Below the pieces are notes generated by a model, which worked only from the letters and a program-made list of their open reading frames with translations, made no database searches and was not told the DNA's origin. A stretch of 47,232 nt of DNA, taken from NCBI GenBank assembly GCA_024277375.1, contig JAJRVD010000002.1, forward strand, positions 1 to 47,232, written 5' to 3'. The DNA is from Candidatus Omnitrophota bacterium. GTDB lineage: Bacteria; Omnitrophota; Gorgyraeia; Tantalellales; Tantalellaceae. Shown in pieces: positions 12,090-36,999 of the stretch (within the stretch, counting starts at the first letter, position 1; every line of letters begins with the position of its first letter). The position numbers and the translations under genes were made by a program.

Positions 12090-12914
12090 ATGTTTATAAA
12101 AATTGTTGTTGAGAATTGGAAAAAGCTGTTCATCGCGATAGGCGTTTTATTCGTTATATTCATTGTCGTCTCGGCCGCTTTGATCCATTTTACGGAAAAG
12201 CCCGAATTTTGTAACACATGTCACCTTATGAAGCCCTACCATAAAGCATGGACAGAGTCGGCTCATAAGGATGTTAGCTGTCTTAAATGTCATATTGAGC
12301 CGGGTTTGAAATCGCATATTAAGGGGAAGATAGACGGTTTGATGCAGGTTCTGGAATATGCATCAGGTAGATACTCTGAAAAACCTGTAGCGACAGTACG
12401 GGATATTTCTTGCTTGCAAGAGGGTTGCCACGAGAAAGAGTCTCTTAGAAACAAGAAAATAATGTTCAAGGATAAGGTTGAATTCCATCATAAAACACAT
12501 TGGCAGGAACATCCCGAGCTAGGTAAGAACATAAGTTTAAGATGTGCTACGTGTCACATGTGGCTTACCTTTGATAAGCATGTAGCGGTTGATGAGAATA
12601 CTTGTTTTATTTGTCACTTTAAGACGGTACCAGTTGAAATGATCACCGAGCAATGCACTAAATGTCATACCGGGATAAGCGAGACTGAGACGCATCGGGA
12701 GTATATGGCCGAGGGGATGCATTGCGCGGATTGTCACGACACGATAAAGACCACAGACGCACCCGTCCTAAAGCAGATGTGTTATTTTTGCCATGCCGAT
12801 CAGGATAAGCTGAATAAAATAGATGACAGGGAACTGTTGCATCAAAAACATATACCTGACAACAATGCTGATTGTATAAGTTGTCATGAATTGATAGCGC
12901 ACGGGAAGGAATAA
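12090..12914 (+). CDS. Membrane-anchored NapC/NirT-like multiheme cytochrome c (8 CXXCH + 1 CX4CH)
   Basis: N-terminal TM, P.FCNTCH.M...W..S.H..V.C..CH NapC pattern. Confidence 0.9.
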   Translation: MFIKIVVENWKKLFIAIGVLFVIFIVVSAALIHFTEKPEFCNTCHLMKPYHKAWTESAHKDVSCLKCHIEPGLKSHIKGKIDGLMQVLEYASGRYSEKPVATVRDISCLQEGCHEKESLRNKKIMFKDKVEFHHKTHWQEHPELGKNISLRCATCHMWLTFDKHVAVDENTCFICHFKTVPVEMITEQCTKCHTGISETETHREYMAEGMHCADCHDTIKTTDAPVLKQMCYFCHADQDKLNKIDDRELLHQKHIPDNNADCISCHELIAHGKE

Positions 12915-12940: not shown

Positions 12941-13474
12941 GTGAAGAAGAATGTTTTAGCGATTATGGTCGTGGCGGCCTTATTGGGTGTATCGACCCTT
13001 GTTTTTGCTGAAGGCGGTCACCAGTACATTGGCGTAAAGAAGTGCTCTATGTGTCATAAGTCCGCGTCAAAAGGTAACCAGTATGGTCAGTGGTTGGGTA
13101 CAAGACACGCAAAAGCTTATGAGGCTTTAGGTAGCGCGGCGGCTAAGGAAGCAGCGGCAAAATCCGGAGTTACCGGCAATCCACAGGAAGCACCCGAGTG
13201 TTTAAAGTGTCATGTGACCGGCTATGGAGCGGACGCGAGCCAGCTGGGAAAAGGTTACAAGAAAGAAGATGGCGTACAGTGTGAGGCTTGTCATGGTGCC
13301 GGCGGCGATTATTGGAAGATGAGTACAATGAAAGATAAAGCGGCAGCTGTTGCCGGTGGCCTTGTTATTCCGTCTAAAGAAGTATGTGTGAAATGTCACA
13401 ATGAAGAAAGTCCGAATTTCAAAGGGTTCAACTTCGATGAGTATAAGGCTAAGATAGCGCACCCGAGATCGTAG
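12941..13474 (+). CDS. Periplasmic tetraheme cytochrome c (c554-like)
   Basis: Signal peptide, YIG...CSMCH...W..T.HA.A, GVQCEACHG.G; 4 CXXCH. Confidence 0.88.
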   Translation: MKKNVLAIMVVAALLGVSTLVFAEGGHQYIGVKKCSMCHKSASKGNQYGQWLGTRHAKAYEALGSAAAKEAAAKSGVTGNPQEAPECLKCHVTGYGADASQLGKGYKKEDGVQCEACHGAGGDYWKMSTMKDKAAAVAGGLVIPSKEVCVKCHNEESPNFKGFNFDEYKAKIAHPRS

Positions 13475-13493: not shown

Positions 13494-13583
13494 GGCTGCA
13501 TACAACATAATGTAGGGGTTCGATCCGTCGAACCCGATATAACGGGCTTGATGAATCAAGCCCCTACATTATGACACAGTCTG
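13494..13583 (+). mobile_element. MITE-like element, copy 4 (left end missing)
   Basis: Internal REP pair and right end GACACAGTCTG followed by AATGAC. Confidence 0.7.
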
Positions 13584-13608
13584 AATGACGACAAAAAAAG
13601 GAAAAATT

Positions 13609-16600
13609 GTGAATAGGATAGGTCATATTTTAGGGTTGGTCTTCGCGACGATCTTGCTGTTTGCGTCGAAAACGTTTCTTTTGCTCAACCCGATAGTGTC
13701 AGCGGGTTTTTTGTTGCTTGTCAGCATGTTCTATGTTGTTTGTACCGTTGTTTCCAAAAGATCACTGTTTTTGTATCCCGTAATGTTTTTTGGGGCACTG
13801 GCTTATTATTTGTGCCTATACGGTGCGGGTATATCGTATATATGGTATCCCGCGCATTCCTTTGTGCTTATCGTCCTTTTAGCGATAGCGAAATATATCG
13901 CCGGATCCAGAGGAAAAAGGGAGTATTCGAATGCTTTTCGGAAAGGCATTAATACGACGGTTGCTTTTTTTACCTTTTGGGCGTTGAGCTTTGCCAGAAC
14001 ATATTGGGGTTCTGATCCCATGGTGTATGTTCTGGCCTTTTTTTGTTACGCTGTTTTTTATCGTGTTCAGAACCGTCTTGATCCGGAAAGACGAAATCTT
14101 ACCTATGTATGGATCTTTTATGGAATAGTCGGAACTTTGGCGCTAGCGGGTATGCAGATTTTCCCTCCATTGGTCAAAACCGCGTTATTAGTGCTTTTGG
14201 TTTTTGCGCTTGCCCATAGGAGTATAAAAGTTTACAAGAAAGGTGGATACTTCGCGACTATGCCGTTTCTGATCGGGATTCTTGTAAGTACATTTTTTGC
14301 GTTTGTCTTTTTTTCCCGTCAGTGGAATGTGTTAGCAATTACATTTCTTTTTAGTTCTTTAGCGTTTTGGTACGTATACAAGGCTATTAAAGAAGAAATT
14401 GTTGGTGACCATATCAGCAATGCCGGCGAAAAATTTTTGATGATCGTTTTTAAGTCAGGTTTTATTCTATTGCCCGTGGTGTTTTGGGGCATTCTTTTAT
14501 CCAAAGGTTTTCCTCCCGGATACTTGAACATAACACTATCGCTTGTTTTTGCATTATTCTTCGCGAAGCTGACGCGTTCACCGTATAAAAGCTTGTTCAA
14601 GAAGAGGAACCACTATGTGTATCTGTCTGGCATGTTCTTTACGGCGCTGGTCTATTTGGTGGTGTTTTCGTTTGAGCGGTTTATATCTAGAGAGTATCTG
14701 TTCCTTTTTACCCCGGTGTGGATGGCGGTCTTGCTCAGTATTGCTGATTTTTTCAGGAAAAATGAAGACTTAAAAAGAGCAAACTCGATCATTGATGTCG
14801 CTTTTTTGCCTATCGCGATAAACGCGATACTCCTAATGACACTTAATGTTTTTAATCCAACGTTGGGCATGATCTTGTCGGGCATAACCATCGTAACGCT
14901 TTTTATGTTTTTGGCAATATTAAGGAGCCATATAGTTTTCTATTCGTTCTCACTGGCCTCCTGGTTCGCTTTGTATAGTGTGCTTCGATCTGTATCCGCT
15001 TCGACACAGGTCTTTGTATTATCCTACATGACGGTCGCGCTTGCCTGCGCTCTGTCCGGGTATCTGCTGACAAGGAAGAAGAATGTTACATCAAACGTAT
15101 TTAACTTTTCACTCGTATTGTATTCTTTGACCGCGATACAATTGGTCCCCGTAGGGTCAAGCTTGCGTTTGGTCGTTCTGTGCTCTATGGCGATAGTGTA
15201 TTTACTGCTGGGGGCTCTTTTGAGCTTGAACAAAAAGACTGATGGCCTTTTCTCGAAAATCGGACATTTCTGCGCGGGTATGATAATTTTTAGTGTTCTG
15301 TCCGATAAGTCATTCAATCAGGCGATATATGCCAGTTTTGCTTTGGCTGTAGCGTATTTGTTGCCGCTACTCTTGCATAAAAGAGAGAAATACGCGTATC
15401 CCGCGAGTCTTTTCGCGGCGCTGGGATATCTTCTTTTATTGATCAAAATATGCCCGTCCAATTGGGTCATGTTCGCATATCTACCGTTAATAGCGGTGTT
15501 TCTTTTTCATCGGAAGGCACCGGCGGCACGTACATCAGTCTATTTTTCCTCAGTCGCTATTGCTTTCTGGGCGCTGACCTCCAGTGCCCTAGTCCCGATT
15601 TTCGCGGCTGGGTCCTCAATTTTGTATGGTATTGTTTTTATTTTGTTCGACAGAAAAGCGGTCTCTTTTACTGCAACATTCGCGAGTTTTTTGTTCTTGG
15701 GAGTTTATTTTCTCCTTAACAGTTTTTTTCCGACAGAACAAGCTATTATGTTCTTTTGCGTGGTTACCTTCATACTTTTTGTCGGTGGTGTTCTCTCGAG
15801 GAATGTTGAGCGTATTAAACAATGGAGTAGTGCTTTTACGATCGCCGGGGTCGCGTTTCTTTTTCTTGCCGCGGTTATCTCAGCATTTGCCGGAGCGATT
15901 ACGGCAACTAAAACCGTTGTTGTTCTCTCGAGCGTCGCGTTTGTTCTGACCGCGTTAATATTCCGTAAGGAAATTTTTCTTTATCTTCTAACCTTAAATA
16001 TGGCGTTATTGTTTTTCAATTTTGTGCAAACTTCAGGGACGGTGTTTACTCAAGATTTGTTTGTATACTTCGTGTACGGAACTCTATTGATCGGGGCGTT
16101 TTTTGTCATACCTTATGTAAAGCGGTTGCGCAGGTATGATCGTGTTTTTACGATGTTCACGATCGCCAACTGGAAGGGTATACTTGTTTATTCTATTCCG
16201 GTATGCGTTATCCTTGTGATCACCTTGATGTTATACGCTGTCAAGATCACCGAGCATCCTCAATTTTGTAGTTCTTGTCACTATATGGATGACTATGTTG
16301 AATCCTGGGAGCATTCTAATCACAAAGATGTTAAGTGCGTTGATTGTCATTATGAGCCCGGAGTGAAAGCGATCGCGATAGGAAAAGTAGAGGGGCTTGT
16401 TCAGCTGGTGAAATATATGACCCATACATATGGTTCCAAGCCATGGGCGGAGGTTAGAGATAAAAGTTGTTTGCGTGAAGGCTGTCATGACAAGATGGAC
16501 AGAAAAAAGCCGGTAATATTCGAGAAGGGAATACCGTTCGCACATTCAACACATCTGGATAATCCGGCTCAAAAACATACTCTCAGGTGTACCACTTGTC

Positions 16601-16962
16601 ATGGTCAGTCAGACGATGAGGCGTAACATCTGTCTGTAACAAAGAGCGCCTGTTTTGTATGCCATTTCAAAGACAAAGAAGCCAATCAGACGTCTAATTG
16701 CGGAACATGTCATGGAATGCCGGATGCTCATAAGGAGTTCATTGAAGATACCACTAACGTAGATTGCATGGCCTGTCATGAGGGGATTACAGAAGGAAGC
16801 GGCAAGGTAGAGGCTTTTTATTGTTTGTTTTGCCATGGCAAAAAGGATGTTCGAAAGAAGATCTCTATTGAAGAGATGCACCAAAAACATGTTACGGATA
16901 ATAAAGTCGAATGTTTTCAGTGCCACGGTGTCGTGAAACATGGACCCGGGGAGGGAATATAA
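13609..16962 (+). CDS. Large polytopic membrane protein fused to NapC-like multiheme domain (8 CXXCH + 1 CX4CH); in-frame TAA at 16624-16626
   Basis: About 880 aa of successive hydrophobic segments; C-terminal domain collinear with 12090-12914; frame continues past TAA as HLSVTKSACFVCHF...CGTCHG into ORF 16717. Confidence 0.8.
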
Positions 16963-16963
16963 T

Positions 16964-17611
16964 ATGAAATGGGAAATATCGGATAAAGCAATGGAGTCCA
17001 GCTTTGTTCAAGAGGTTGAAAAGAGAAGCGAACAGAACGTTTCGTCTTGCTATCAGTGCGGGAAGTGTTCGGCGGGGTGTCCTATTTGCCAGGATATGGA
17101 TTTTTCCCCCAATCAGATACTTCGTCTTATTCAGATGGGGTTAAAAGATGAGATACTGGCAAGTTCGTCCATATGGATGTGCGCTTCTTGTCAGACCTGT
17201 ACAACAAGATGTCCTTTGAAGATAGACTTGGCAAAGATAATGGACGCTTTGCGGATAATTTCACATATGCAGGACCATCAGAAAAAGTTCAAACCGAAAT
17301 CTTTTGTGAAAGACCTTGCCGGACGAACATATGACAGTTTGCTTAAAACTCTCGATATGGATGTTACCTCTAACCTGAAAGTTTTTGCCAAGGTTTTTCT
17401 GGAAAGTATACGGCAATATGGAAGGCTTTCGGAAGTCGGCCTGATCTTGAACTACAATATCAATAGCGGATTTTTGTTCTCTAACGTTAAGAATTGTCCC
17501 GCGTTTCTTTCGAGGGGCAAACTGAAGATAAAACCGGCCGATCTTAAAAGGATCGACAAGGTAAGACGAATATTTGAAAAACTAGCTGAACTAGAGAAGG
17601 AAGAATTATGA
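16964..17611 (+). CDS. hdrC: Heterodisulfide reductase subunit C
   Basis: CYQCGKCSAGCP and IWMCASCQTCTTRCP. Confidence 0.93.
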   Translation: MKWEISDKAMESSFVQEVEKRSEQNVSSCYQCGKCSAGCPICQDMDFSPNQILRLIQMGLKDEILASSSIWMCASCQTCTTRCPLKIDLAKIMDALRIISHMQDHQKKFKPKSFVKDLAGRTYDSLLKTLDMDVTSNLKVFAKVFLESIRQYGRLSEVGLILNYNINSGFLFSNVKNCPAFLSRGKLKIKPADLKRIDKVRRIFEKLAELEKEEL

Positions 17612-18495
17612 AGTATGCCTATTTTCCGGGATGCTCACTACACGCGACAGCGGAAGAATACGCCCGATCAAGTGTCGCGGTTTGCGAAAAACTCGGTATT
17701 GAACTAGAAGAGATCGAAGATTGGTTGTGTTGTGGAGCTACACCCGCGCATATTACTAATCATCTAGCGTCTATTGCTTTACCTATAGCCAGTTGCGCGT
17801 GGGCTGAAAAGCAAAAGCTGGATGTTCTTACCTGCTGCGCGGCATGTTCCAGCAGGCTTAAATTGGCAAATCAGGAAGTGAAAGAAGATCCTGAGCTTCG
17901 CGCTAAGGTGAATAAAATTATTGAAGAGGACTATAAAGGAAATATAGAGGTACATCATATACTGGAAGTCCTCTCAAAAAAGGTGGGGTTCGAGAATCTA
18001 AGAGAACAGATCGTAAAGCCGCTCAATGGATTGAAGGTAGCTTGTTATTATGGCTGTCTTTTAACGAGGTTGCCTGAGCCTTTGCGGCTGGACAATCTTG
18101 AAGACCCCATGGTTATGGATGATCTCGCGACGGCAATGGGCGCGGAAGCGGTTGACTGGCCGTATAAAACCGAATGTTGCGGAGCTAGTCTCGCGGTTAT
18201 ACAGGAGCAAACAGTATTAAGGCTCGCTAATGACATTTTAACCATAGCTGAGGATAGCGGAGCCGAATGTATTCTTGTAGCCTGTCCTTTGTGTCAGTCT
18301 AACCTGGATCTGATGCAGTCGGGAGTAAATAAAAAATACAATAAAAACTTCAATATTCCGGTGTTTTATTTTACTCAACTTTTAGGGCTGGCGATGGGCA
18401 TAGATAGAGAGAAGCTGGCGTTATCAAAATTAATCGTTAACCCTTTCCCGCTTTTGGCGGAGAAGGGGTTCATAGAAAAAGAGGCGTATCTATAA
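17608..18495 (+). CDS. hdrB: Heterodisulfide reductase subunit B
   Basis: YFPGC, W.CCGA, YYGCLL.R, CCG, ACPLCQ.NLD (two CCG domains). Confidence 0.95.
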   Translation: MKYAYFPGCSLHATAEEYARSSVAVCEKLGIELEEIEDWLCCGATPAHITNHLASIALPIASCAWAEKQKLDVLTCCAACSSRLKLANQEVKEDPELRAKVNKIIEEDYKGNIEVHHILEVLSKKVGFENLREQIVKPLNGLKVACYYGCLLTRLPEPLRLDNLEDPMVMDDLATAMGAEAVDWPYKTECCGASLAVIQEQTVLRLANDILTIAEDSGAECILVACPLCQSNLDLMQSGVNKKYNKNFNIPVFYFTQLLGLAMGIDREKLALSKLIVNPFPLLAEKGFIEKEAYL

Positions 18496-21400
18496 TGGCT
18501 AGAATAGGCGTATTTGTATGTTGGTGTGGTTCTAATATCGCGGAAACGGTTGATTCCGAAGGCGTAGGGGAATATGCCGCGAAGTTGCCGGGCGTTGCAG
18601 TCTCAATGGATTACAAATATACATGTTCGGACCCCGGACAGAAAATGATAATCGAGGCTATCCGGGAGCATAAACTGACCGGAGTTGTTGTCGCTTCATG
18701 TTCTCCGCGTATGCATGAGACTACCTTTAGACGAACTGTTGCCGGTGTGGGGTTGAATCCCTATTTGCTTGAGATGGCAAATATACGGGAGCATTGCTCA
18801 TGGGTGCATCATGACAAGGAAGCAGGCACAGAAAAGGCAAAGATATTGGTTCGTATGATGGTAGAAAAGGTGAAACATAATCATAAGTTATATCCTATCA
18901 AAGTACCTGTGACAAATAGAGCTCTCGTAATCGGCGGGGGTATTGCCGGCATACAGGCCGCGTTGGATATCGCGAAGGAAGGTCATGAAGTAATAATTGT
19001 GGAAAAACAACCATCAGTGGGTGGGCATATGTCGCAGTTGGATGAAACTTTTCCAACGTTGGATTGTTCTCAGTGTATATTGACTCCCCGTATGGTAGAA
19101 ATAATCCAGGATAAAAATATAAAACTCTATGCCTACTCGGAAGTCGAATCGGTAAGCGGTTTTATCGGCAATTTCAAAGTAAAGATCCGCCGCAAAAGTC
19201 GCTACCTGAAGGAGAGTGAATGTACCGGTTGTTCTGATTGCGAAGAACCATGTCCGGTAGAACTTAAGAATGAATTTAACGAAGGTTTGGATACCCGCAA
19301 AGCTATTTATCGTCCATTTACACAGGCTGTTCCGAATTCATTTCTTATCGAGAAAACAAAAGAACCGGCCCCGTGTAAAGTGGTTTGTCCTATAGGACAG
19401 AATGTGCAGGGTTATGTAGCTTTAATGTCTAAAGGTAAATTTAAGGAAGCACTTAAAGTTGTGCGCGAAACCAATCCGTTCCCGTCGGTTTGCGGGAGGG
19501 TTTGCACCCACGTTTGTGAAACCGCGTGCAACAGGAGCCGTATAGATGAGCCTATTTCAATAGCGTCACTAAAAAGAGTTTTGGGAGACTTTGAGGCCGC
19601 CAATCCGGAGCTTATAACATACGCGAAACCTGAAGAAACAAAATCTGAAAAAGTTGCTGTTGTCGGCGCCGGTCCTGCCGGACTTGTATGTGCTTATGAC
19701 CTGGCAAAAGCGGGATATAAAGTTAAAGTGTTTGAATCTACACCCGTGGCGGGCGGGATGCTCTATTTAGGTATACCGGAATATCGGCTTACTCGCGATG
19801 TTATTGCCAGGGAGGTAAAGGCTATCCAGGATATGGGTGTTGAGATAGAACTGAATTCGCCGGTTGATGACGCGCAAGAACTCTTGAAAAAGGGATATAA
19901 AGCTGTTTTTCTCGGTATTGGTTGTCAAAAAGGAAAAGACCTTGGAATAGAGGGTGAAGATGCCGAAGGCTCTACGGACGCTGTCGCGTTCTTGAAAAAG
20001 GTGAACCTCGGAGAAACAACTAAAGTAGACGGTAATGTTATTGTTGTAGGTGGTGGTAACTCCGCTATCGATGCCGCGAGAAGCGCGCTTCGACTGGGGG
20101 CTAAGCAGGTAAAGATAGTTTACAGACGCTCTAAAAAAGAAATGCCCGCCGATCCGAGAGAAGTTGAAGATGCTGAGAAAGAAGGCGTGAGCATAGAGTT
20201 TCTTTCCAATCCGACCAAAGTAATAACTGAAAATGGCAGGATAACCGAGGTAGAGTGTTTAAGGATGGAACTCGGTGAACCTGACGGATCCGGGCGAAGA
20301 AGGCCTGTGCCCGTAAAAGGATCTGAATTTATTATCAAATCAGACCTCTTAATAAGAGCTGTAAGCCAGGCTATGGAACAGGATTTTGATAAGTCCGAAA
20401 ATATTAAATTAAGCAGGTGGAAAACTGTTGATGTAGATCCGTTGACACTGGCGACTTCAGTCGATGGAATATTTGCCGGCGGCGACGGTGTTAATGGACC
20501 GGAAACCGTAGTTAGAGCAATGGAAGACGGATATATCGCGGCAGAATCTATAAAGAGGTTCTTAACTTCCCGAGACCTGAAAGAAGGGCGTAACTTTCCT
20601 GCTCATAAGGTCACCGAAGAACCGGCAGAGAGGCTTTTTGAGGGAGTTGAAAAAGCCTCGAGAGTAAAAATACCTGAAATATCGATTGAGGACAGAAATA
20701 ACTTTAAAGAGGTAGCGAGTGTTCTTTCCGATGAGGACGCGATCAAGGAGGCTAAAAGATGTCTTAATTGCGGGATATGTTCCGAATGCGGGGAATGCGG
20801 CAAAGCGTGTGAAAAGGATCTGATAGACCATAATATGGAAGATGAGATCGTCGAAGAAGATGTGGGCGCTATTGTTGTCGCGACGGGATATGATCTTATG
20901 GACCCATCGGTATATGAAGAGTACGGCTACAAAAAATATCCGGATGTATTGACCAGTTTAGAATTTGAGAGAATGGTAAGTGCCTCCGGGCCGACAAACG
21001 GAAAGTTAATAAGGCCTTCAGACGGACAAACACCTAAAAATGTGGTTTTTGTCCAATGTGTCGGATCCCGGGATGAAGATAAAGGGTATCCGTATTGTTC
21101 AGGGATATGCTGTATGTATACGGCAAAGCATACGATGCTTTTTAAACATAAAGTTCCTGACGGAAAAGCTTTCGTTTTCTATGTCGACGTTCGAGCTTCA
21201 GGGAATAACTATTAGCAGTTTGTCAGGCGTGTTGTTAAGGAGAAAAAGGCAATATATTTACGCGGTAGGGTAGCGAAAGTATTTCCTCTGGGACCAAAGC
21301 TCATTGTTAGAGGTGCCGACACTCTAAGTGGAGGGCAGATCGAGATAGAAGCGGACATGGTAGTTCTGGCTACGGCTGTGACGGCGGCTCCAGGAGCGGA

Positions 21401-21863
21401 TAAGCTTGCGCAGACATTGAAAATTTCCTATGATGAGCATAATTTTCTTTCGGAAGCTCATCCGAAGTTACGTCCGGTTGAGACTAATACCGCGGGTATA
21501 TTTTTGGCGGGTACATGCCAGGCTCCCCGGGATATTCCTGAAACTGTCGCTCAGGCATCGGGTGCCGCGGCAAAGGTATTGGGTATAATTCATGGTAATG
21601 AACTGGAAAGAGAGCCCGCGACCGCGATCGTGGACGAAACCAACTGCAACGCGTGTTTCGACTGCGAGAAAGTATGCGCTTATAACGCGGTAGAGGAAAA
21701 AGAGATCAAAAACAGAAAAGGTGAACTAATAAAAGTTGTTGCCAGTATAAACCAGGGGATGTGTCAAGGGTGCGGGGCATGTGCCGCGTCCTGTAGATCC
21801 GGATGCATAGATGTTCAGGGCTTTACGGATGAACAGATATACGCGGAAATATTGGCAAGTTAA
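18495..21863 (+). CDS. hdrA: HdrA with inserted GltD/NfnB-like module (HdrL-like); in-frame TAG at 21213-21215
   Basis: GVFVC.CG.NI, NIREHCSW, GGGIAG, TFPTLDC, QCVGSRD, CSGICC; reading through TAG gives QFVRR...YLRGRV...ADMVVLA in frame with ORF 21357. Confidence 0.9.
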
Positions 21864-21872
21864 TTCAGCATT

Positions 21873-22066
21873 CGGGCTGTGTCGTAATTCGTTTTGCGGA
21901 TGGCCGCGTACAATATGTTTGTGGATGGCCGCGTACAATATGTTTGCGGATGGCCGCGTACAATATGTTTGTGGATGGCCGCGTACAATATGTTGTAGGG
22001 GTTCGATTTATCGAACCCGATATAACGGGCTTGATGAATCAAGCCCCTACATTATGACACAGTTTG
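21873..22066 (+). mobile_element. MITE-like element, copy 5, with internal 4 x 25-bp tandem repeat
   Basis: CGGGCTGTGTC...GACACAGTTTG; 194 bp = 119 + 3 x 25. Confidence 0.8.
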
Positions 22067-22086
22067 AATGACGGAACAGGAGAAAC

Positions 22087-22560
22087 ATGAAAAAGTGGGA
22101 ACCTAAAATAACAGCGTTTTTATGTAACTGGTGTTCTTACGCGGGCGCGGACCTGGCGGGGACAAGCAGATTTGAATATCCAACCAACATAAGGATCATC
22201 CGCCTACCATGTTCCGGAAAGGTGGACCCCTTGTTTATAGTGAAGGCTTTCGAGAACGGATCGGACGGCGTACTTGTCTCAGGGTGTCATCCGGGGGATT
22301 GCCATTATACGAGTGGCAATTATCACGCGCGAAGAAAATTCGCTATGTTCCGTAAACTAATTGAGTTTTATGGAATAGATATTAAGCGGATCCAATTTTC
22401 GTGGGTTTCCGCCGCTGAAGGCGGGAAGTGGGCAGAGGTAGCTACTCAGGTTACAGAGGACATCCGAAAACTGGGTCCGTATGAGCCGTTCAAGAAGGAA
22501 GCTGTTGTACAGGGATGCAGTGTACATCCGATGAATAATGAAAAGGGAATATTAAACTAA
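22087..22560 (+). CDS. mvhD: MvhD/FlxD [2Fe-2S] subunit
   Basis: FLCNWCSYAGADLAG, PCSG, DGVLVSGCHPGDCHY, WVSAAEG. Confidence 0.95.
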   Translation: MKKWEPKITAFLCNWCSYAGADLAGTSRFEYPTNIRIIRLPCSGKVDPLFIVKAFENGSDGVLVSGCHPGDCHYTSGNYHARRKFAMFRKLIEFYGIDIKRIQFSWVSAAEGGKWAEVATQVTEDIRKLGPYEPFKKEAVVQGCSVHPMNNEKGILN

Positions 22561-22571
22561 ATGGGGATAAA

Positions 22572-23375
22572 ATGAGTAAAATACTTAAAAAAGAAGTTTT
22601 GAGTCCGGATGTAAAGTTGTTTGTTGTCGAAGCTAAAGAAATAGCTAAAAAGGCCGAACCCGGTCAGTTTATTATACTTATGGTTTCCGAAGAAGGAGAG
22701 AGGATTCCGCTCACTATAGCGGATTTTTCCCGGGATGATGGGACTTTGACTCTTGTTGTTCAGGAAGTCGGTGTAACTACAAAAAAAATGGGCAAGCTTG
22801 AAGAGGGAGATGATATCCCTTACATCGTGGGACCTTTGGGGAAGCCTTCAGATGTAGTCAAAAGGGGTCTTATTGTTTGTATTGGCGGAGGGATAGGAAT
22901 AGCGCCTATATACCCTATTGCCAGAAAACTTAAAGAACTTGGAAATGAAGTGATCTCGATAATTGGCGCTCGAACCAAAGACATCCTTTTCTGGGAAGAA
23001 AAAATGGGAGAAGTGAGTAGCGAGCTTATCGTGACAACCGATGATGGCTCATACGGTAAAAAAGGTTTTGTAACACAGGTTTTGCAGGGGATTATTGATA
23101 GTGGTCGCGAAATAAGCGAAGTTATGGCGATAGGTCCGGTGCCGATGATGAAGGCGGTGTCGGATCTGACAAAGACATATGGGATAAAGACGGTAGTCAG
23201 TTTGAATCCCATAATGGTAGACGGAACAGGCATGTGTGGAGGATGTAGAGTTGATGTTGATGGCGAAAAGAAGTTCTGTTGTGTAGATGGTCCTGAATTT
23301 GACGCGCATTATGTAGATTTTGAAGGGCTTATTCAGAGACAACAGGCATATAAAGAAGAGGAACAACAAGGCTAG
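22572..23375 (+). CDS. nfnA: NfnA (NADH-dependent ferredoxin:NADP+ oxidoreductase small subunit)
   Basis: PGQF, GERIPLTIAD, GPLG, GGGIG, MVDGTGMCGGCRV, CVDGPEFD. Confidence 0.92.
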   Translation: MSKILKKEVLSPDVKLFVVEAKEIAKKAEPGQFIILMVSEEGERIPLTIADFSRDDGTLTLVVQEVGVTTKKMGKLEEGDDIPYIVGPLGKPSDVVKRGLIVCIGGGIGIAPIYPIARKLKELGNEVISIIGARTKDILFWEEKMGEVSSELIVTTDDGSYGKKGFVTQVLQGIIDSGREISEVMAIGPVPMMKAVSDLTKTYGIKTVVSLNPIMVDGTGMCGGCRVDVDGEKKFCCVDGPEFDAHYVDFEGLIQRQQAYKEEEQQG

Positions 23376-23388
23376 GAGAAGTGTAATC

Positions 23389-24786
23389 ATGGAAATAAAG
23401 AAAACTCAGCAGGATATGCCAAGACAAAAACCGGAAGAACGAAAAAAGAACTTCAATGAAGTGGCTTTGGGCTATACTGAAGATATGGCGCTTTCAGAGG
23501 CAGCTAGATGTATACAGTGCAAAAAACCGCTTTGTGTTGACGGGTGTCCGGTTGAAATAGATATTCCCGGATTTATTCAGCTTATTAAGGATAAGGACTA
23601 TATGGGCGCGGCATTGAAAATTAAGGAAAAAAATTGTCTTCCCGCCGTTTGCGGGAGAGTTTGTCCTCAGGAAGATCAATGTGAACTGAAATGTGTGCTG
23701 GGGATAAAGGGAGAGTCGGTATCGATAGGACGTTTGGAAAGATTTGCCGCGGATTTTGAGATTGAGCAAACTAAAGGCACGCCATTCAAGCGGCATGCCA
23801 TTTCTTCAGGCGCTAAAAAGATCGCCATTGTCGGGTCTGGTCCATCCGGACTTACAGTCGCGGCGGAACTTGCGCATTTGGATTATAAGGTTACGATCTT
23901 TGAAGCTTTTCATAAGGCAGGAGGCGTGCTCGTTTATGGTATCCCGGAATTTAGATTGCCTAAGTCAATAGTCGAAAGAGAAGTAGAATATGTAAAAAGT
24001 CTGGGAGTTGAATTAAAGACAAACTGGATCATCGGTAAAATCAAAACAATAGACGATCTTCTTGATAACGGGTTTGCCGCCGTTTATGTTTGCACAGGAG
24101 CCGGACTTCCATATTTTATGGAAATACCCGGGGAGAACAGTATTGGTGTATATTCCGCGAATGAATTTCTGACAAGAAGCAATCTGATGAAGGCATATAA
24201 ATTCCCCGAATACGATACTCCGATCAAACATGGTAAAAAAATAGCGGTTATAGGCGGGGGGAACGTCGCTATGGACGCCTCAAGGACCGCGTTACGCCTG
24301 GGTGCCGATAATGTGTATTTAATTTATCGCAGGTCCATGGAGGAGATGCCCGCTCGTGAAGAAGAGATAGAGAACGCCCAGGAAGAAGGAATTGATTTCA
24401 GGCTTCTAACCAATCCTATAGAGATTTTAGCGGATGAGAAGGGCAAAGTAAGAGGAATTAAATGCATAAAAATGGAACTGGGTGAACCGGATGATTCGGG
24501 AAGACGCAGACCCGTTCCAATTGATGGATCCGAGTTTGAGGTCGAAGTGGATACAGTAATAATGTCGATAGGAAACGGAGCAAACCCGCTGATATCCTCG
24601 ACTACGCCTGATCTTGATACGAATAAATGGGGGAATATTATTACAAAAGATGAATCCGGCCAGACTTCTAAAAAAGGAGTATTCGCCGGAGGAGATATTG
24701 TTACCGGCGGCGCGACTGTGATCCTTGCCATGGGGGCGGGTAAAAAAGCCGCGGAAGCAATTGATAAATATCTATCTTGTGAATAG
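23389..24786 (+). CDS. nfnB: NfnB (large subunit, GltD-like)
   Basis: EAARCIQC...C..GCP, CGRVCPQE.QCE, GSGPSG, YGIPEFRLP, GGGNVAMD, GGDIVTG.ATVILAMG. Confidence 0.92.
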   Translation: MEIKKTQQDMPRQKPEERKKNFNEVALGYTEDMALSEAARCIQCKKPLCVDGCPVEIDIPGFIQLIKDKDYMGAALKIKEKNCLPAVCGRVCPQEDQCELKCVLGIKGESVSIGRLERFAADFEIEQTKGTPFKRHAISSGAKKIAIVGSGPSGLTVAAELAHLDYKVTIFEAFHKAGGVLVYGIPEFRLPKSIVEREVEYVKSLGVELKTNWIIGKIKTIDDLLDNGFAAVYVCTGAGLPYFMEIPGENSIGVYSANEFLTRSNLMKAYKFPEYDTPIKHGKKIAVIGGGNVAMDASRTALRLGADNVYLIYRRSMEEMPAREEEIENAQEEGIDFRLLTNPIEILADEKGKVRGIKCIKMELGEPDDSGRRRPVPIDGSEFEVEVDTVIMSIGNGANPLISSTTPDLDTNKWGNIITKDESGQTSKKGVFAGGDIVTGGATVILAMGAGKKAAEAIDKYLSCE

Positions 24787-24875: not shown

Positions 24876-24910
24876 AAATTATAATAGTGAGTGTAAAAGG
24901 TGGACAGTAT

Positions 24911-25747
24911 ATGGAAAATAAACTACAAGAAATAGCGAAAAAACTTTTGACTGACGGAGAAGTTGATCTCGTAATAGGTTACGGGGCGGATACCGATAGG
25001 TTTATTGAGCCTGTATTTATTACTAAGCCGGATGAGGCGAAAAAACTTCTGTGGAACAAAAAATGTTTTAATAATCTGGCAGTGTACTTAACGAAGGATG
25101 TAGTTAAACACGCGAATAAGGTGGGGATAATTGCCAAAGGCTGCGACATAAAAGCTATTGTGGGGCTGATCCAGGAAAGCCAGATAGATAGAGATAAAGT
25201 CGTTATACTTGGTATCTCATGCGATGGTGTCGGAGAGCCGCTTCTAAAAAAATGTAACGGTTGCGATGTGAATACCCCTAAACTATACGATCATTTGATC
25301 GGAGACCCTATTGAGTCGACTCTGCGGGAAGACAAATACGCGGAGGTAGAGGACTTTGAAAGAAGAAGCGGGGAAGATAAAAAGGCGTTTTGGGACAAAG
25401 AACTTGCCAAGTGTATAAAATGTTATGCTTGCAGGGCCGCGTGCCCTTTGTGTTATTGCGCCAAATGTGTTGTTGAGAAAAATATACCACAATGGGTGCC
25501 GACAAGTCCACATAGTGCCGGTAATTTTTCATGGAACTTTATAAGGAGTTTTCATCTTACCGGTCGATGCGTTGGCTGCGGGGAATGTGAAAGAGTGTGT
25601 CCTGTAGGGATACCACTGGGTCTTATCAATAAAAAGGCGGCTTTGGAGGTAAAAAGCGCCTTTGAATATGAGGCTGGTTATGACTACGAGGTTGAGCCGC
25701 CGCTTACTTGTTTTTAAAAAAATGATAATGAGGACTTTATAAGATGA
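24911..25747 (+). CDS. flxC: FlxC-like 4Fe-4S protein; in-frame TAA at 25715-25717
   Basis: KGCD, CIKCYACRAACPLCYC, H.TGRCVGCGECERVCP; reading through gives KNDNEDFIR and an ATGA overlap with the next gene. Confidence 0.8.
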
Positions 25748-26718
25748 AGAAAACATTAAAAGAAATATTCGACGCGTTAAGGACAAAAAATTATAGAGTA
25801 GTTGCCCCCGTTAGAGATGGTAATAAAATATTTTTCACAGAAGTTAGTTCCCCGGATGAAATAACGCTTGATTATGTTAATTCTGAGATCGCCGCGAAAG
25901 AATGGCTGTTTCCACGCACTGAGGTGGTAATGAAGTTCGATAACTTAGCGACAGAAAACGTAGAAATAAGTGACGATATTGAAAATCAAACTGTTGAGAC
26001 TCTAACGGCCATTATTGGAGTCCGACCCTGCGATGTGAAAAGTCTTCTTATCCTGGATAAAGTGTTTTCCTGGGATTACAAGGATGCCTTTTACCTGAAT
26101 AGACGTGAGAATACTGTGCTGGTAACGCTCGGATGTTCGAAACTCGGGGATGGTTGTTTTTGCGATAAAGTCGCCCTTGATATGAGCTCACAAGAGGGTT
26201 CAGATGTTTTTCTCGCGCAAAATGGTGACGGTTCATTTGAAATGAGCGTGGTTTCTGATAAAGGCGCGGAAATTTTTCCGGGAGAGAAAATTGTTCCTGA
26301 GGAGCAAAAAACGACCGGGGACGCTTTTGACAAGAAAAAGATAAAAGCGTGGCTTGACGGTAATTTTGAGGATGAGATCTGGGATAAAATGGCGCTTAAG
26401 TGTCTTAGTTGTGGTGCATGCGCTTATGTGTGCCCCACATGTCATTGTTTTGACGTGATCGATGAAGCATCCATTTCTGAAGGATGCAGGCGAAAGAATT
26501 GGGATTCCTGCGGTTTCGGGCAATTTACAATACATGCGTCAGGGCATAATCCCCGACCATCGCAAAAAGAGAGATTTCGCAACAGGATACTGCACAAGTT
26601 TAAGTACTATGTAGATAAGTTTGATGAGACAGCCTGTGTGGGGTGCGGTCGGTGCAGAAAAGTATGCCCGGTGAATATGAATTTGCGGGACATAGTAGGC
26701 GCGATAGAAAAGAAATAA
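25744..26718 (+). CDS. flxB: FlxB (AsrA-like 4Fe-4S protein)
   Basis: GVRPCD, CLSCGAC..VCPTCHCF, WDSC, SGHNPR, CVGCGRC...CP. Confidence 0.88.
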   Translation: MKKTLKEIFDALRTKNYRVVAPVRDGNKIFFTEVSSPDEITLDYVNSEIAAKEWLFPRTEVVMKFDNLATENVEISDDIENQTVETLTAIIGVRPCDVKSLLILDKVFSWDYKDAFYLNRRENTVLVTLGCSKLGDGCFCDKVALDMSSQEGSDVFLAQNGDGSFEMSVVSDKGAEIFPGEKIVPEEQKTTGDAFDKKKIKAWLDGNFEDEIWDKMALKCLSCGACAYVCPTCHCFDVIDEASISEGCRRKNWDSCGFGQFTIHASGHNPRPSQKERFRNRILHKFKYYVDKFDETACVGCGRCRKVCPVNMNLRDIVGAIEKK

Positions 26719-26740
26719 CGTTGGGAAAGACAGGAGACAT

Positions 26741-27574
26741 ATGGATAATTTATATAGATCTAATTTAGCTAAGATAGTAAAAGTGACGGACGAAACCCCG
26801 GACGTTAAAACCTTTAAACTTGAATTCGTGGATGAAAAATTCAGAGATTCATTCGACTTTAAAGCCGGACAGTTCGGGCTTTATGGGGTTTTTGGCGAAG
26901 GCGAATCAACTTTTTGCGTCGCGTCGCCTCCTACACGCAAAGGGTATATCGAGTGCAGTGTAAAAAAGACCGGAAGAGTTACGGACGCGTTGCACAATCT
27001 TGACGAGGGAGCGGTGATAGGGTTTAGAGGCCCTTATGGCAATAGTTTTCCTATAGAGGATATGAAAGGGAAAAATATTGTATTTATAGCCGGTGGTATC
27101 GGGTTGGCTCCTGTCAGATGCATTATATGGAACTGTCTTGACTTGCGTAAGGAGTTCAAGGACATAACGATAATATACGGATCTCGCAGTGTGGATGACC
27201 TAGTGTATAAGGAAGAACTTAAACAATGGGAAGAGATGTCCGATGTGAAATTGGTCAAAACTGTTGATCCCGGAGGGGAAACCGATGATTGGAATGGCGA
27301 AGTAGGTTTTGTTCCCACAATAGTGGAGAAAGTCGCGCCTGGTGCTGAGAATTCTATCGCGGTTATTTGCGGCCCTCCAATAATGATAAAGTTCACGTTG
27401 CCCGTTCTGGATAAGTTGGGATTTGAACCGGAGAGTATAATTACCACCCTTGAAAATAGAATGAAGTGTGGTCTTGGGAAATGCGGACGATGTAACGTGG
27501 GAAACGTTTATGTGTGCAAAGATGGTCCTGTATTTACATATAAGGACCTTAAAAAAATGCCCGAGGAGTTTTGA
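26741..27574 (+). CDS. flxA: FlxA (FAD/NAD-binding, AsrB-like)
   Basis: GQF, RGPYGN.F, AGGIGLAP, CGPPIMIK, LENRMKCGLGKCGRCN...VCKDGPVF. Confidence 0.9.
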   Translation: MDNLYRSNLAKIVKVTDETPDVKTFKLEFVDEKFRDSFDFKAGQFGLYGVFGEGESTFCVASPPTRKGYIECSVKKTGRVTDALHNLDEGAVIGFRGPYGNSFPIEDMKGKNIVFIAGGIGLAPVRCIIWNCLDLRKEFKDITIIYGSRSVDDLVYKEELKQWEEMSDVKLVKTVDPGGETDDWNGEVGFVPTIVEKVAPGAENSIAVICGPPIMIKFTLPVLDKLGFEPESIITTLENRMKCGLGKCGRCNVGNVYVCKDGPVFTYKDLKKMPEEF

Positions 27575-35232: not shown

Positions 35233-36999
35233 ATGTGTGTGTTCAGGAATATTATTGTCGTCATATTTCTATGTGCGGTTGTCTGCATGTCGGCGGCTTC
35301 GTCTGCCTCTTCCGAAAGGCTTAACATGAAGGCTGAGACTGAATATGGTCTAAGCGATTTTTATCGCTCCCCGGAGCCGCCGGAAGGTTCCACCGGAACC
35401 CACCTTTCACAAGACTATAGATTGTACTTAGAGGGCGGGATATTCAAGCAGGGCATGCTCGACGCGATGGTCGGAGCGGAACTACAGGACAAGTACGGAA
35501 CCAGGGATTTCAATACTGAAAATAAAGTACGTTTTGATTATGGCAAGTGGCTTAGAATTGAAACTTTATCGAAGCAGGAGATCGATGAAGATATGTTTTT
35601 TGCCGGTTCGATCCAGCCGCAATCACCGATACGTACCGTTACAAATAAATATTCGGGGAAGCTTAAAATAGACAAAGTTACAACGGTGGATTATGTTCTC
35701 GAGGATAGAGAGAGAAGGGATCTTCTCCTTGGAACCGTTACGGGAGAAGAAACAGAAACAAAGACACTTAAATTCAAAAGAAGGGCGCGTGGCTTGACCA
35801 TAAGCGGAAAATACAGGCAACGGGATTTTAAGGACCTATTAGGGACGCGCAGTGATATAGCCTCGAAGGATATTGGAATGGAAATCTTTTATCGACCAAA
35901 AAACTACATCAGTATTCTGGCAGGGTTTGACGACGAAACCGACGAGGACGTTGACAAGGGCACGGAACTACATTCCAGAAACTCCAGGATGGAGCTTGCT
36001 CTTAAGCCCGTTCAGGGGCTGAAGATCCGCGACCGCGTAACCTTGCGACAAGATGATGACTCCAAAACCGGAGAAAATATTATTAACGTATCTAATGAGA
36101 TCATAATAAATTTTGACCCGAGAAAAGAGACTACTTTTGAACTTGCGTACAAGAGGTCAGAAGAAGACAAAGAAAGGAATGTGGACATTATCTCAACAAC
36201 GGATGAGACAAGATTCAAAATGCGTCTCATACCCATAAATGGAGTTACAGTGCAGTCGGGAGTCGAGATTACCGATAAAGTAAGTTCATCGTCCGCTGAA
36301 AATCTCCTAAATACAAAAGTGTATACTGATCTGACGCTCGAACCGGTTAAAACAACAAAGATCGGGGCCAACATTTCAAATACGTCACAAAAGAACACTT
36401 TCACCTCTCAAGTTATATCCAATACAACGGCTATGTCAGCTACGCTGCAATACAGGCCCAGGGGGCGTTTTTATTGGTTTCTTCAGGGAAATACCTCGAT
36501 AACGGATAATCCATCAACAGATTCATTTACGCGGACAGATACGGTAAGTTCCAGCCTGAACATGGATCCTTTCTCGTTTCTGGATATATCTTTCAGGACA
36601 AGCGGCCAACGAACGACGGGGTCGTCTGGATCGGGAGATTCCAATAGGCTTTTGAACTCAATTGAGTTAAGCATGAAGCTTTTGAATAATATGAATTTTT
36701 CCGCTGAATATGAAATGATCAATTCTACCGGAGCAAGCTCGACAAACGAGAGTCTTGTAGACTTGTCGTTGTTCTATCATTTGACAAAAATGGATTTTTC
36801 GTTAAGATACCAGATACGTGATATATCGGGATCGGCCACAACGGGAAAAACTTTGATCTTGAGCGATTTAAAGTATAGAATAAGCAAAAACATTGTTTTT
36901 AGTGTCAGGTTTTCTATGACTGATTATTCGGATCAGGTGGATTCTTTTAACAGCTACGATACGACATTGATAGAAAGCTTACTTTCTATGAAATTTTAA
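35233..36999 (+). CDS. Putative outer-membrane beta-barrel protein
   Basis: Signal peptide, repeated amphipathic strand pairs with Y.P/L.P turns, Ser/Thr/Asp-rich loops, C-terminal Phe (LLSMKF). Confidence 0.75.
   Translation: MCVFRNIIVVIFLCAVVCMSAASSASSERLNMKAETEYGLSDFYRSPEPPEGSTGTHLSQDYRLYLEGGIFKQGMLDAMVGAELQDKYGTRDFNTENKVRFDYGKWLRIETLSKQEIDEDMFFAGSIQPQSPIRTVTNKYSGKLKIDKVTTVDYVLEDRERRDLLLGTVTGEETETKTLKFKRRARGLTISGKYRQRDFKDLLGTRSDIASKDIGMEIFYRPKNYISILAGFDDETDEDVDKGTELHSRNSRMELALKPVQGLKIRDRVTLRQDDDSKTGENIINVSNEIIINFDPRKETTFELAYKRSEEDKERNVDIISTTDETRFKMRLIPINGVTVQSGVEITDKVSSSSAENLLNTKVYTDLTLEPVKTTKIGANISNTSQKNTFTSQVISNTTAMSATLQYRPRGRFYWFLQGNTSITDNPSTDSFTRTDTVSSSLNMDPFSFLDISFRTSGQRTTGSSGSGDSNRLLNSIELSMKLLNNMNFSAEYEMINSTGASSTNESLVDLSLFYHLTKMDFSLRYQIRDISGSATTGKTLILSDLKYRISKNIVFSVRFSMTDYSDQVDSFNSYDTTLIESLLSMKF

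Follow-up and report, generated by a model that had tools for sequence, protein, structure and literature searches.

Introduction

Complexes related to heterodisulfide reductase (Hdr) share a common plan, in which a cytoplasmic module of HdrB-, HdrC- or HdrD-like CCG and iron-sulfur (FeS) proteins is encoded beside a membrane subunit. HdrDE, DsrMKJOP, QmoABC, TmcABCD and HmeCDE are built in this way, with membrane subunits of the NarI/HdrE-type di-heme b or the NrfD type, and some membrane-bound Hdr-related complexes carry periplasmic c-type hemes. Here we describe a gene in which a very large membrane domain is fused to a multiheme cytochrome c directly upstream of hdrC. It is located at 13609-16962 in a stretch of 47,232 nucleotides from Candidatus Omnitrophota bacterium (GenBank assembly GCA_024277375.1, contig JAJRVD010000002.1, positions 1 to 47,232 of the forward strand), which is called the window below. 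The locus follows the known plan of Hdr-related module, membrane subunit and periplasmic hemes with a membrane domain of no known family; unlike the membrane subunits named above, this domain gives no match to their families and has no conserved His.

Membrane parts fused to a periplasmic multiheme c domain are also known from CbcL and ImcH of Geobacter, which act at the quinone pool in extracellular electron transfer. The membrane part of CbcL is of the di-heme b type, that of ImcH has few helices, and neither protein is known to be linked to hdr; the likeness of the fusion protein to both is one of description only.

By domain content the genes that follow the fusion gene resemble FlxABCD-HdrABC of Desulfovibrio vulgaris, with HdrA, HdrB, HdrC, an MvhD-like protein, FeS proteins and an FAD/NAD(P) protein in one cluster. 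To our knowledge the Flx-Hdr of D. vulgaris has no membrane or cytochrome partner, whereas in the window the gene of a membrane cytochrome abuts hdrC. Passages of PMC4759654, citing Ramos et al. 2015, present Flx-Hdr as an NADH-oxidizing complex with a proposed reduction of DsrC by flavin-based bifurcation. Enlarged HdrA proteins with NADH-binding domains are described in the same passages (PMC4759654), and the enlarged HdrA with NAD(P)-binding part encoded in the window resembles them.

How soluble Hdr-type bifurcating complexes reach the membrane and extracellular acceptors is an open question, for which the operon presented here is a conserved candidate. The fusion is genuine and conserved, and as a membrane-cytochrome partner of Hdr/Flx genes it is apparently undescribed: titles and abstracts in the literature, with subscription papers and supplements outside the search and an earlier description thus possible, gave no description of a large membrane domain with a NapC/NrfH cytochrome beside hdr. 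A confident structural model and a clear gene set make the operon directly testable.

Organization of the fusion gene

The open reading frame (ORF) on the + strand runs from an ATG at 13585 to an in-frame TAA at 16624-16626 (1013 codons), after which the same frame stays open for 111 further codons, up to a TAA at 16960-16962. Read through, the product has 1125 residues, with the membrane part at residues 1-889, followed by nine heme motifs (residues are numbered from 13585). A GTG at 13609 is the more likely start, because it has AAGGA 6 nt upstream and gives an N-terminus that agrees with the closest relative (P0004) and with a database gene call (P0003), whereas no AAGGA-like site precedes the ATG at 13585. 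This start was already assumed in a preliminary description of the locus, whose frame and final stop also hold, with a gap of 1 nt between the final stop and the hdrC ATG at 16964. The latter is likely the true start of hdrC; it is preceded at about 9 nt by a GGAGG within the cytochrome frame, and the N-termini of HdrC from relatives align to MKWE...

Up to the internal stop the gene (13609-16623, or from the alternative start ATG 13585) encodes a 33-helix membrane domain and an NrfH-like tetraheme module. The membrane domain consists of an N-module (13585-15264, residues 1-560, transmembrane helices 1-20), a C-module (15265-16170, residues 561-862, helices 21-32 together with a conserved short cytoplasmic helix at 853-859) and helix 33 (16171-16248, residues 863-888), which corresponds to the single anchor helix found in NrfH and in a stand-alone paralog at 12090-12914. 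The tetraheme module (16252-16623) contains hemes 1-4, with CSSCHYM (CxxCHxM) at heme 1 and Lys934 at position +12 from the His of heme 2. The internal TAA (16624-16626) stands directly before the invariant His1015 and separates these hemes from the pentaheme C-terminal part with hemes 5-9 in the same frame (16627-16962). The motifs before the TAA are CSSCH, CVDCH, CLREGCH and CTTCH, those after it CFVCH, CGTCH, CMACH, CLFCH and CFQCH.

The cytochrome had been called nonaheme and NapC-like from the sequence, and both terms are appropriate for the read-through product: nine motifs are present, and Pfam family PF03264 (NapC/NirT) matches residues 866-956 with a score of 29.9 bits where 24.1 are required, and of 33.1 bits when the genome was searched. 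NrfH ranks first in NCBIfam, yet with 44.7 bits against the equivalog cut-off of 134.2 (TIGR03153), and the protein is thus not NrfH proper. The best relative of solved structure by sequence is NrfH of D. vulgaris (2j7a_C, E 1.4e-6), aligned through the anchor helix and CTSCHIM (CxxCHxM). Both proteins have the anchor helix directly before the CxxCHxM of heme 1, followed by heme 2 (PDB 2j7a, 2vr0), and the Lys 12 residues later may be shared as well. NrfH has about 160 residues, one helix and four hemes; the fusion protein has 33 helices and carries nine hemes, and most relatives carry twelve.

The CxxCHxM motif occurs at heme 1 in all 30 family ORFs examined. The Lys at heme-2 His+12 is found in 28 of 29 sequences linked to a membrane module and, among stand-alone cytochromes, in 98 of 111. 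Passages of PMC2762525 name Lys82 of NrfH and Lys91 of CymA as the lysine for menaquinol binding. Judged by spacing and without alignment, the Lys at heme-2 His+12 would correspond to these residues. The matches to PF03264 and 2j7a_C, the CxxCHxM motif and this Lys point to an NrfH-type module formed by the last membrane helix and hemes 1-4; the known members of this type are menaquinol dehydrogenases, by analogy with which the module is putatively one. No nrfA was detected among the window ORFs scanned, the neighbors being hdr genes.

The cytochrome part had further been called a paralog of the stand-alone cytochrome at 12090-12914. The two share 37% identity over 276 residues (E 4e-66); the alignment starts at the short helix that precedes the anchor, continues across the TAA and ends at the last heme.

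Relatives and linkage to hdr genes

Scans of genome and metagenome contig collections were evaluated for the best 80 of 98 confirmed relatives (150 matched stretches) and the best 80 of 139 (212 matched stretches), respectively. According to module profiles, the membrane module is present in 37 of these 160 loci; the remainder encode one-helix cytochromes that stand alone and carry 9 to 25 hemes. Most fused relatives have 1330-1470 residues and 12 hemes. Nine hemes occur in the window and in P0004, whose membrane part is 45% identical to that of the window. A split form with an N-module gene and a C-module-cytochrome gene is found in L013, L017 and L117.

Genes for HdrC and/or HdrB are located directly downstream, within 1.5-2.5 kb, in 24 of the 29 distinct loci with membrane module, and many of them abut or overlap (identical sequences were collapsed, and L093, which has the module and hdrCB, was excluded as it has no ORF record). 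Of the five remaining loci only L017 and L078 have at least 1.5 kb of downstream sequence. Among 115 loci without membrane module, hdr adjacency is seen once, in L099, which is truncated on the 5' side; in 77 of the 115 the sequence extends far enough downstream for hdr to be seen, and it is absent. The question raised in the preliminary description, whether homologs keep the fusion and the hdrC adjacency or are unlinked to hdr, is answered by these counts in favor of linkage across several phyla, with L017 and L078 as exceptions.

A tree of the shared cytochrome region was computed from 140 rows, leaving out sequences without heme-1 motif, those with less than 230 residues in the region and exact duplicates. 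One branch (Shimodaira-Hasegawa-like approximate likelihood ratio test, SH-aLRT, 96) separates all 29 membrane-linked sequences and L099 from 110 stand-alone ones. The single membrane-linked group indicates that the association of membrane cytochrome and hdr arose once and then spread, and rows from Actinomycetota are interspersed among those from Planctomycetota. The contig labels of metagenome-assembled genomes (MAGs) give as carriers Planctomycetota (Phycisphaerae, Brocadiia), Actinomycetota, Nitrospiraceae, Anaerolineae, Cloacimonadota, Hydrogenedentota and others. With this occurrence in uncultured Planctomycetota and several other phyla, the system could matter for iron, manganese or interspecies electron transfer in sediments.

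The genome to which the window belongs (2.07 Mb, 95.7% complete) has a single copy of the fusion gene. Searches for the membrane domain were negative in 24 other genera of the family and, at E 1e-10, in a sample of 300 further genomes from the phylum; 16 genomes from other families of the same class gave one noise-level match with four internal stops and nothing else. The gene is isolated in its phylum, a pattern as expected for horizontal acquisition.

Membrane domain

The membrane part is of unusual build, with 33 helices, almost no loops and no cofactor ligands. AlphaFold2 with 80 sequences gave a model with a predicted local distance difference test (pLDDT) of 91.2 and a predicted template modeling score (pTM) of 0.80, in which 33 transmembrane helices are joined by very short loops; it replaces an earlier run with 16 sequences (pLDDT 60.8), whose fold search was unusable. 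A script counted 23 charge-free stretches plus further helices, so that the estimate of over 20 helices made by eye from the sequence was sound. Because basic residues are concentrated in alternate loops on one face, with a spacing of about 50 residues, the N-terminus is placed inside and the cytochrome outside; in the predicted topology roughly 16 helical hairpins are followed by the final anchor. The short cytoplasmic helix at 853-859, which precedes the last helix, is the best conserved cytoplasmic element.

No family was recognized in the membrane part by Pfam at E 0.01 (the whole protein gives PF03264 at 866-956 and nothing else), by NCBIfam or by PHROGs (0 families), and a sequence profile search of the PDB returned a chance match alone (E 0.24). 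Pfam searches with 16 family members at E up to 10 likewise gave no meaningful match, with 0 of 16 for NrfD, antiporter-like families and DUF2339. The last of these had been a lead from a protein atlas (0.83; family carried by 13% of that cluster) and was rejected on this result; otherwise the membrane part falls to unnamed clusters in the atlas. A profile built from 16 membrane domains and run against 1.84 billion representative proteins gave 104 matches at E <=0.001 (87 at 1e-10, 44 at 1e-30), all of which are, judged by matched ranges, full-length members, halves or fragments of the same family. A word-index protein search found four proteins including that of the window, and understates the size of the family relative to the locus scans and the exhaustive profile search.

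Foldseek against the PDB gave nothing at E <=0.001 for the model, and the list was led by soluble TPR/HEAT solenoids with TM-scores of 0.1-0.25. The top of a wide structural search was taken by designed helical repeats (Z 13.4, root mean square deviation 9.7 over 217 residues), and the only membrane proteins among the fold matches listed were EccD proteins of mycobacterial ESX systems (7np7_D2, Z 12.2, deviation 7.5 over 264 residues; 6lar_B, Z 9.2, deviation 6.3 over 241 residues). All of these scores are within the range that helical repeats reach by chance. EccD forms a one-helix-thick wall of membrane helices around lipid; with no sequence similarity, unrelated biology and scores in the chance range, it serves as a lead to shape only. 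The most fitting description of the model is a wall or solenoid built of membrane hairpins, without clear solved counterpart. The fold is not claimed as new because the fold searches barely probed parts of the model.

Judged against Pfam, NCBIfam and the sequences and folds of the PDB, a new family is supported. These searches agree with the remark in the preliminary description that no cytochrome b or NrfD signature was recognizable, and they brought up no well-known unrelated family.

Internal repeats were sought with hhalign among seven slices of the domain, with probabilities of <=21% apart from one artefact of overlapping slices. The C-module profile matches the N-terminal 225 residues with independent E values of 1.7e-4 to 9e-3 in three relatives and 79 in another, weak evidence for a possible ancient internal duplication.

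Internal stop codon

At the position of the TAA at 16624-16626, 24 relatives have Q (16), E (4), K (2), V (1) or T (1), and none has a stop; codons for Q, E and K are one base from TAA. Between the His of heme 4 and the next invariant His there are 7 residues in the relatives versus 8 in the window, the stop included. Conserved recoding of the codon is ruled out by its absence from all 24 relatives. Reassignment of TAA is ruled out as well: TAA is the commonest stop in the window, ending 19 of 38 long ORFs, and the standard code therefore applies.

One explanation is that the TAA is real and that this copy, a recent pseudogene or the gene of a shortened usable protein, is truncated after the tetraheme module, so that the last five hemes are not made. 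We give this a little less than an even chance. The unaltered code and the absence of conserved recoding speak for it, as do the lack of an in-frame start after the TAA before 16717 and the position of the stop just past the match to the NrfH model, which ends at residue 1008 of 1013. The isolation of the gene in its phylum (0 of 300 genomes) is as expected of a recent acquisition perhaps on its way out. Against truncation, all invariant family columns beyond the TAA are intact, including the five CxxCH motifs and distal His residues. Identity between window and relatives falls from 49.7 to 37.4% past the stop, and in an intact control pair from 44.9 to 35.2%; we read this as no greater a drop than between intact relatives, and neither the family columns nor identity to intact relatives give a sign of decay after the stop. 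In addition, the ribosome-binding site of hdrC lies within the tail of the long frame, and the picture would be no different if the metagenome assembly had a single wrong base or a minor allele at this place.

Because the columns are intact, identity drops no further than between intact relatives and no in-frame start is close, the TAA is best taken as a putatively recent event, a minor allele or an assembly error. If the stop is real, the product of this copy may be the membrane domain with the complete NrfH-like tetraheme module only.

Proposed role

We propose, with about even confidence, that the product of the fusion gene forms the output end, in membrane and periplasm, of a Flx-Hdr-type oxidoreductase. 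From the architecture, the NrfH-type motifs and the conserved gene order we infer a docking step, a quinone step and a direction of electron flow. Soluble Hdr/Flx proteins would oxidize NAD(P)H, possibly bifurcating electrons to ferredoxin, and HdrCB would dock on the short basic cytoplasmic loops of the membrane domain. HdrB would pass high-potential electrons to a quinone at the inner face, which would be re-oxidized at the outer face at the NrfH-like heme-1 site, probably a menaquinone site. Electrons would then travel via hemes 1-9 (or, in this copy with its TAA, perhaps via four hemes only) into the periplasmic multiheme cytochromes, of which the contig encodes many; reverse flow would also be possible. 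The membrane domain would act as docking platform or scaffold and provide a quinone or lipid environment, and would not be a wire or a pump.

A quinone is the presumed link because no cofactor site spans the membrane. Several observations point to a quinone context: in L017 (5684-11927) genes of the UbiA and UbiE type lie directly upstream of the split pair, with a diheme cytochrome c downstream; in L078 (7307-13164) genes for a Rieske protein and cytochrome b follow the split pair directly; HdrB of the window scores almost equally with the models for SdhE, the menaquinol:fumarate reductase anchor (188.5 bits), and HdrB (205.9 bits); and the genome has a MenA homolog (118.8 bits, cut-off 102.15).

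A number of findings weigh against this proposal. The internal TAA could leave this copy truncated or dead. Gene order is the sole argument for a contact of HdrC/HdrB with the membrane domain, which is thus putative; co-folding of HdrB and HdrC with membrane residues 561-889 scored 0.00, to which we give no weight for or against docking. In L017 and L078 the membrane domain and its cytochrome occur with no hdr gene beside them, the loci compared are related and do not count as independent, and MAG contigs may bear wrong taxon labels or have been binned in error. The absence from 300 genomes of the phylum indicates that the system is not part of the core metabolism of the lineage. Neither MqnA/D nor, above the cut-off, MenB was found in the genome (95.7% complete), which makes menaquinone synthesis here uncertain. 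Finally, the 16-sequence alignment of the membrane domain has no invariant His or Cys, and neither this nor the 80-sequence alignment has a conserved buried charged residue, so no quinone or electron site can be located.

Among the 16 sequences, Tyr, Ser, Thr and loop Arg make up most of the invariant polar residues. With 80 sequences, 32 columns are conserved at >=75%, most of them hydrophobic or aromatic; they include several Tyr near the cytoplasmic ends of outward-running helices and one loop Arg. One mid-membrane His is conserved at 81% and is Tyr in the window. Thus the domain is predicted from its alignments to have no b-heme ligands, no thiol-relay Cys pair and no buried Lys/Glu of antiporter-like pumps. 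A di-heme b subunit (HdrE, DsrM, QmoC C-terminal or NarI type) is not indicated, there being no invariant His and no Pfam match in 16 of 16 members. The NrfD/PsrC type gave no Pfam match in 16 of 16 members; its absence among the fold matches listed does not speak against a shared fold. For the complex I or Mrp antiporter-like type neither a conserved mid-membrane Lys/Glu nor a Pfam match was found. A DsbD/CcdA-type thiol relay as substrate of HdrB was considered and is ruled out by the lack of a conserved Cys in the membrane domain.

The preliminary description saw in the domain a new membrane anchor or ion-coupling module connecting HdrBC with the hemes. A new family with conserved hdrC adjacency remains of this; ion translocation and a direct transmembrane electron path find no support, since invariant His or Cys and conserved buried charges are missing from the 16 and 80 sequences. 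We therefore regard an H+ or Na+ translocating module that couples electron transfer between Hdr and hemes to the membrane potential as very improbable. Its size and its place between a cytoplasmic redox module and periplasmic hemes would suit such a module, and a further coupling site would be useful as complex I NuoH was not found in the genome. On the other side, no mid-membrane Lys, Glu or Asp is conserved, the sole conserved His is absent from the window, none of 16 members matches antiporter-like or NrfD families at E up to 10, and a quinone redox loop is the simpler energy coupling.

It is unlikely, in our estimate, that the fusion protein is instead a self-sufficient NrfH-type quinol dehydrogenase with enlarged anchor, passing electrons from the general quinone pool to periplasmic cytochromes, with Hdr/Flx as a separate, co-regulated soluble complex. 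The NrfH-type heme-1 region, the pairs without hdr beside quinone-related genes in L017 and L078, and the lack of a conserved docking surface or cofactor site in the membrane domain are in accord with such an enzyme. It does not explain why hdr goes with the membrane module (24 of 29 loci) and not with the stand-alone cytochrome (1 of 115), or why, in many relatives as in the window, the start of hdrC abuts or overlaps the stop of the fusion gene; moreover, the conserved operon has no other membrane protein.

A bolder form of the proposed Flx-Hdr output end, which we consider more doubtful still than a self-sufficient dehydrogenase, takes the 33-helix domain as a cofactor-free wall of hairpins that holds a private patch of lipid and menaquinone, reduced by HdrB on the inside and re-oxidized by heme 1 on the outside in a self-contained redox loop. 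If true, flavin-based bifurcation would be joined directly to extracellular electron transfer with a pumpless proton gradient, in a respiratory complex of undescribed type.

Gene neighborhood

All long ORFs scanned on the contig are on the + strand. The fusion gene is preceded by the stand-alone NrfH-like nonaheme paralog (12090-12914) and a c554-like cytochrome (12941-13474), a pair that is also found beside the fusion gene in several relatives; several related loci have a divergent set of c554-like, nonaheme, ResB and CcsA genes upstream. It is followed by genes for an HdrC-like protein with two 4Fe-4S motifs (16964-17611), which also matches the QmoC model (70.1 bits), an HdrB-like protein with two CCG domains (17608-18495), an HdrA-like protein with inserted GltD/NfnB-like NAD(P)-binding part (18495-21215), a separate HdrA ferredoxin-domain protein (21357-21863) and an MvhD/FlpD-like protein (22087-22560). 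A Flx-like module of an FeS protein, an AsrA/HydB-like FeS protein and an AsrB/HydG-like FAD/NAD(P) protein (24887-27574) shows conserved synteny. The conserved order is hdrC, hdrB, long hdrA, the HdrA ferredoxin-domain gene, mvhD, and the genes for the FeS, AsrA/HydB-like and AsrB/HydG-like proteins. Two further HdrB-like genes are located on another contig of the genome.

HdrA is encoded in pieces in the window (18495-22560), as a 906-residue protein, a 168-residue ferredoxin-domain protein and the MvhD-like protein; the first hdrA gene of relatives is longer still (about 1430 residues). Between mvhD and the Flx-like genes lies an NfnA/NfnB-like pair (22572-24786), for which no match was seen in the related loci examined.

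The adjoining parts of the contig (450-12044 and 27571-38037) encode Rex, siroheme synthase, HemA, HemC, HemD/CobA, HemB and HemL, two radical-SAM and two NirDL-like proteins (an alternative heme route), ResB, CcsA, at least six further multiheme cytochromes and an NHL propeller. We read the contig as an island whose genes serve to build and feed a heme network in the periplasm or outside the cell. Among the multiheme cytochrome genes, a 588-residue protein without Pfam or NCBIfam family (35233-36999) is a candidate outer-membrane partner of the cytochromes. Farther downstream, a 1645-residue protein (40891-45828) has as its sole match a weak starch-synthase-type glycosyltransferase domain (E 1.7e-7).

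The spacer upstream of the fusion gene contains an 81-nt palindromic element (13500-13580; RNA fold -45.1 kcal/mol, z -7.3), and the spacer gave no match in Rfam. The element is a dispersed repeat of the genome, present in at least 40 places with 94-100% identity (40 of 273 candidates scored). Several copies are located at contig ends, and it looks like a repetitive extragenic palindromic (REP) element or a miniature inverted-repeat transposable element (MITE).

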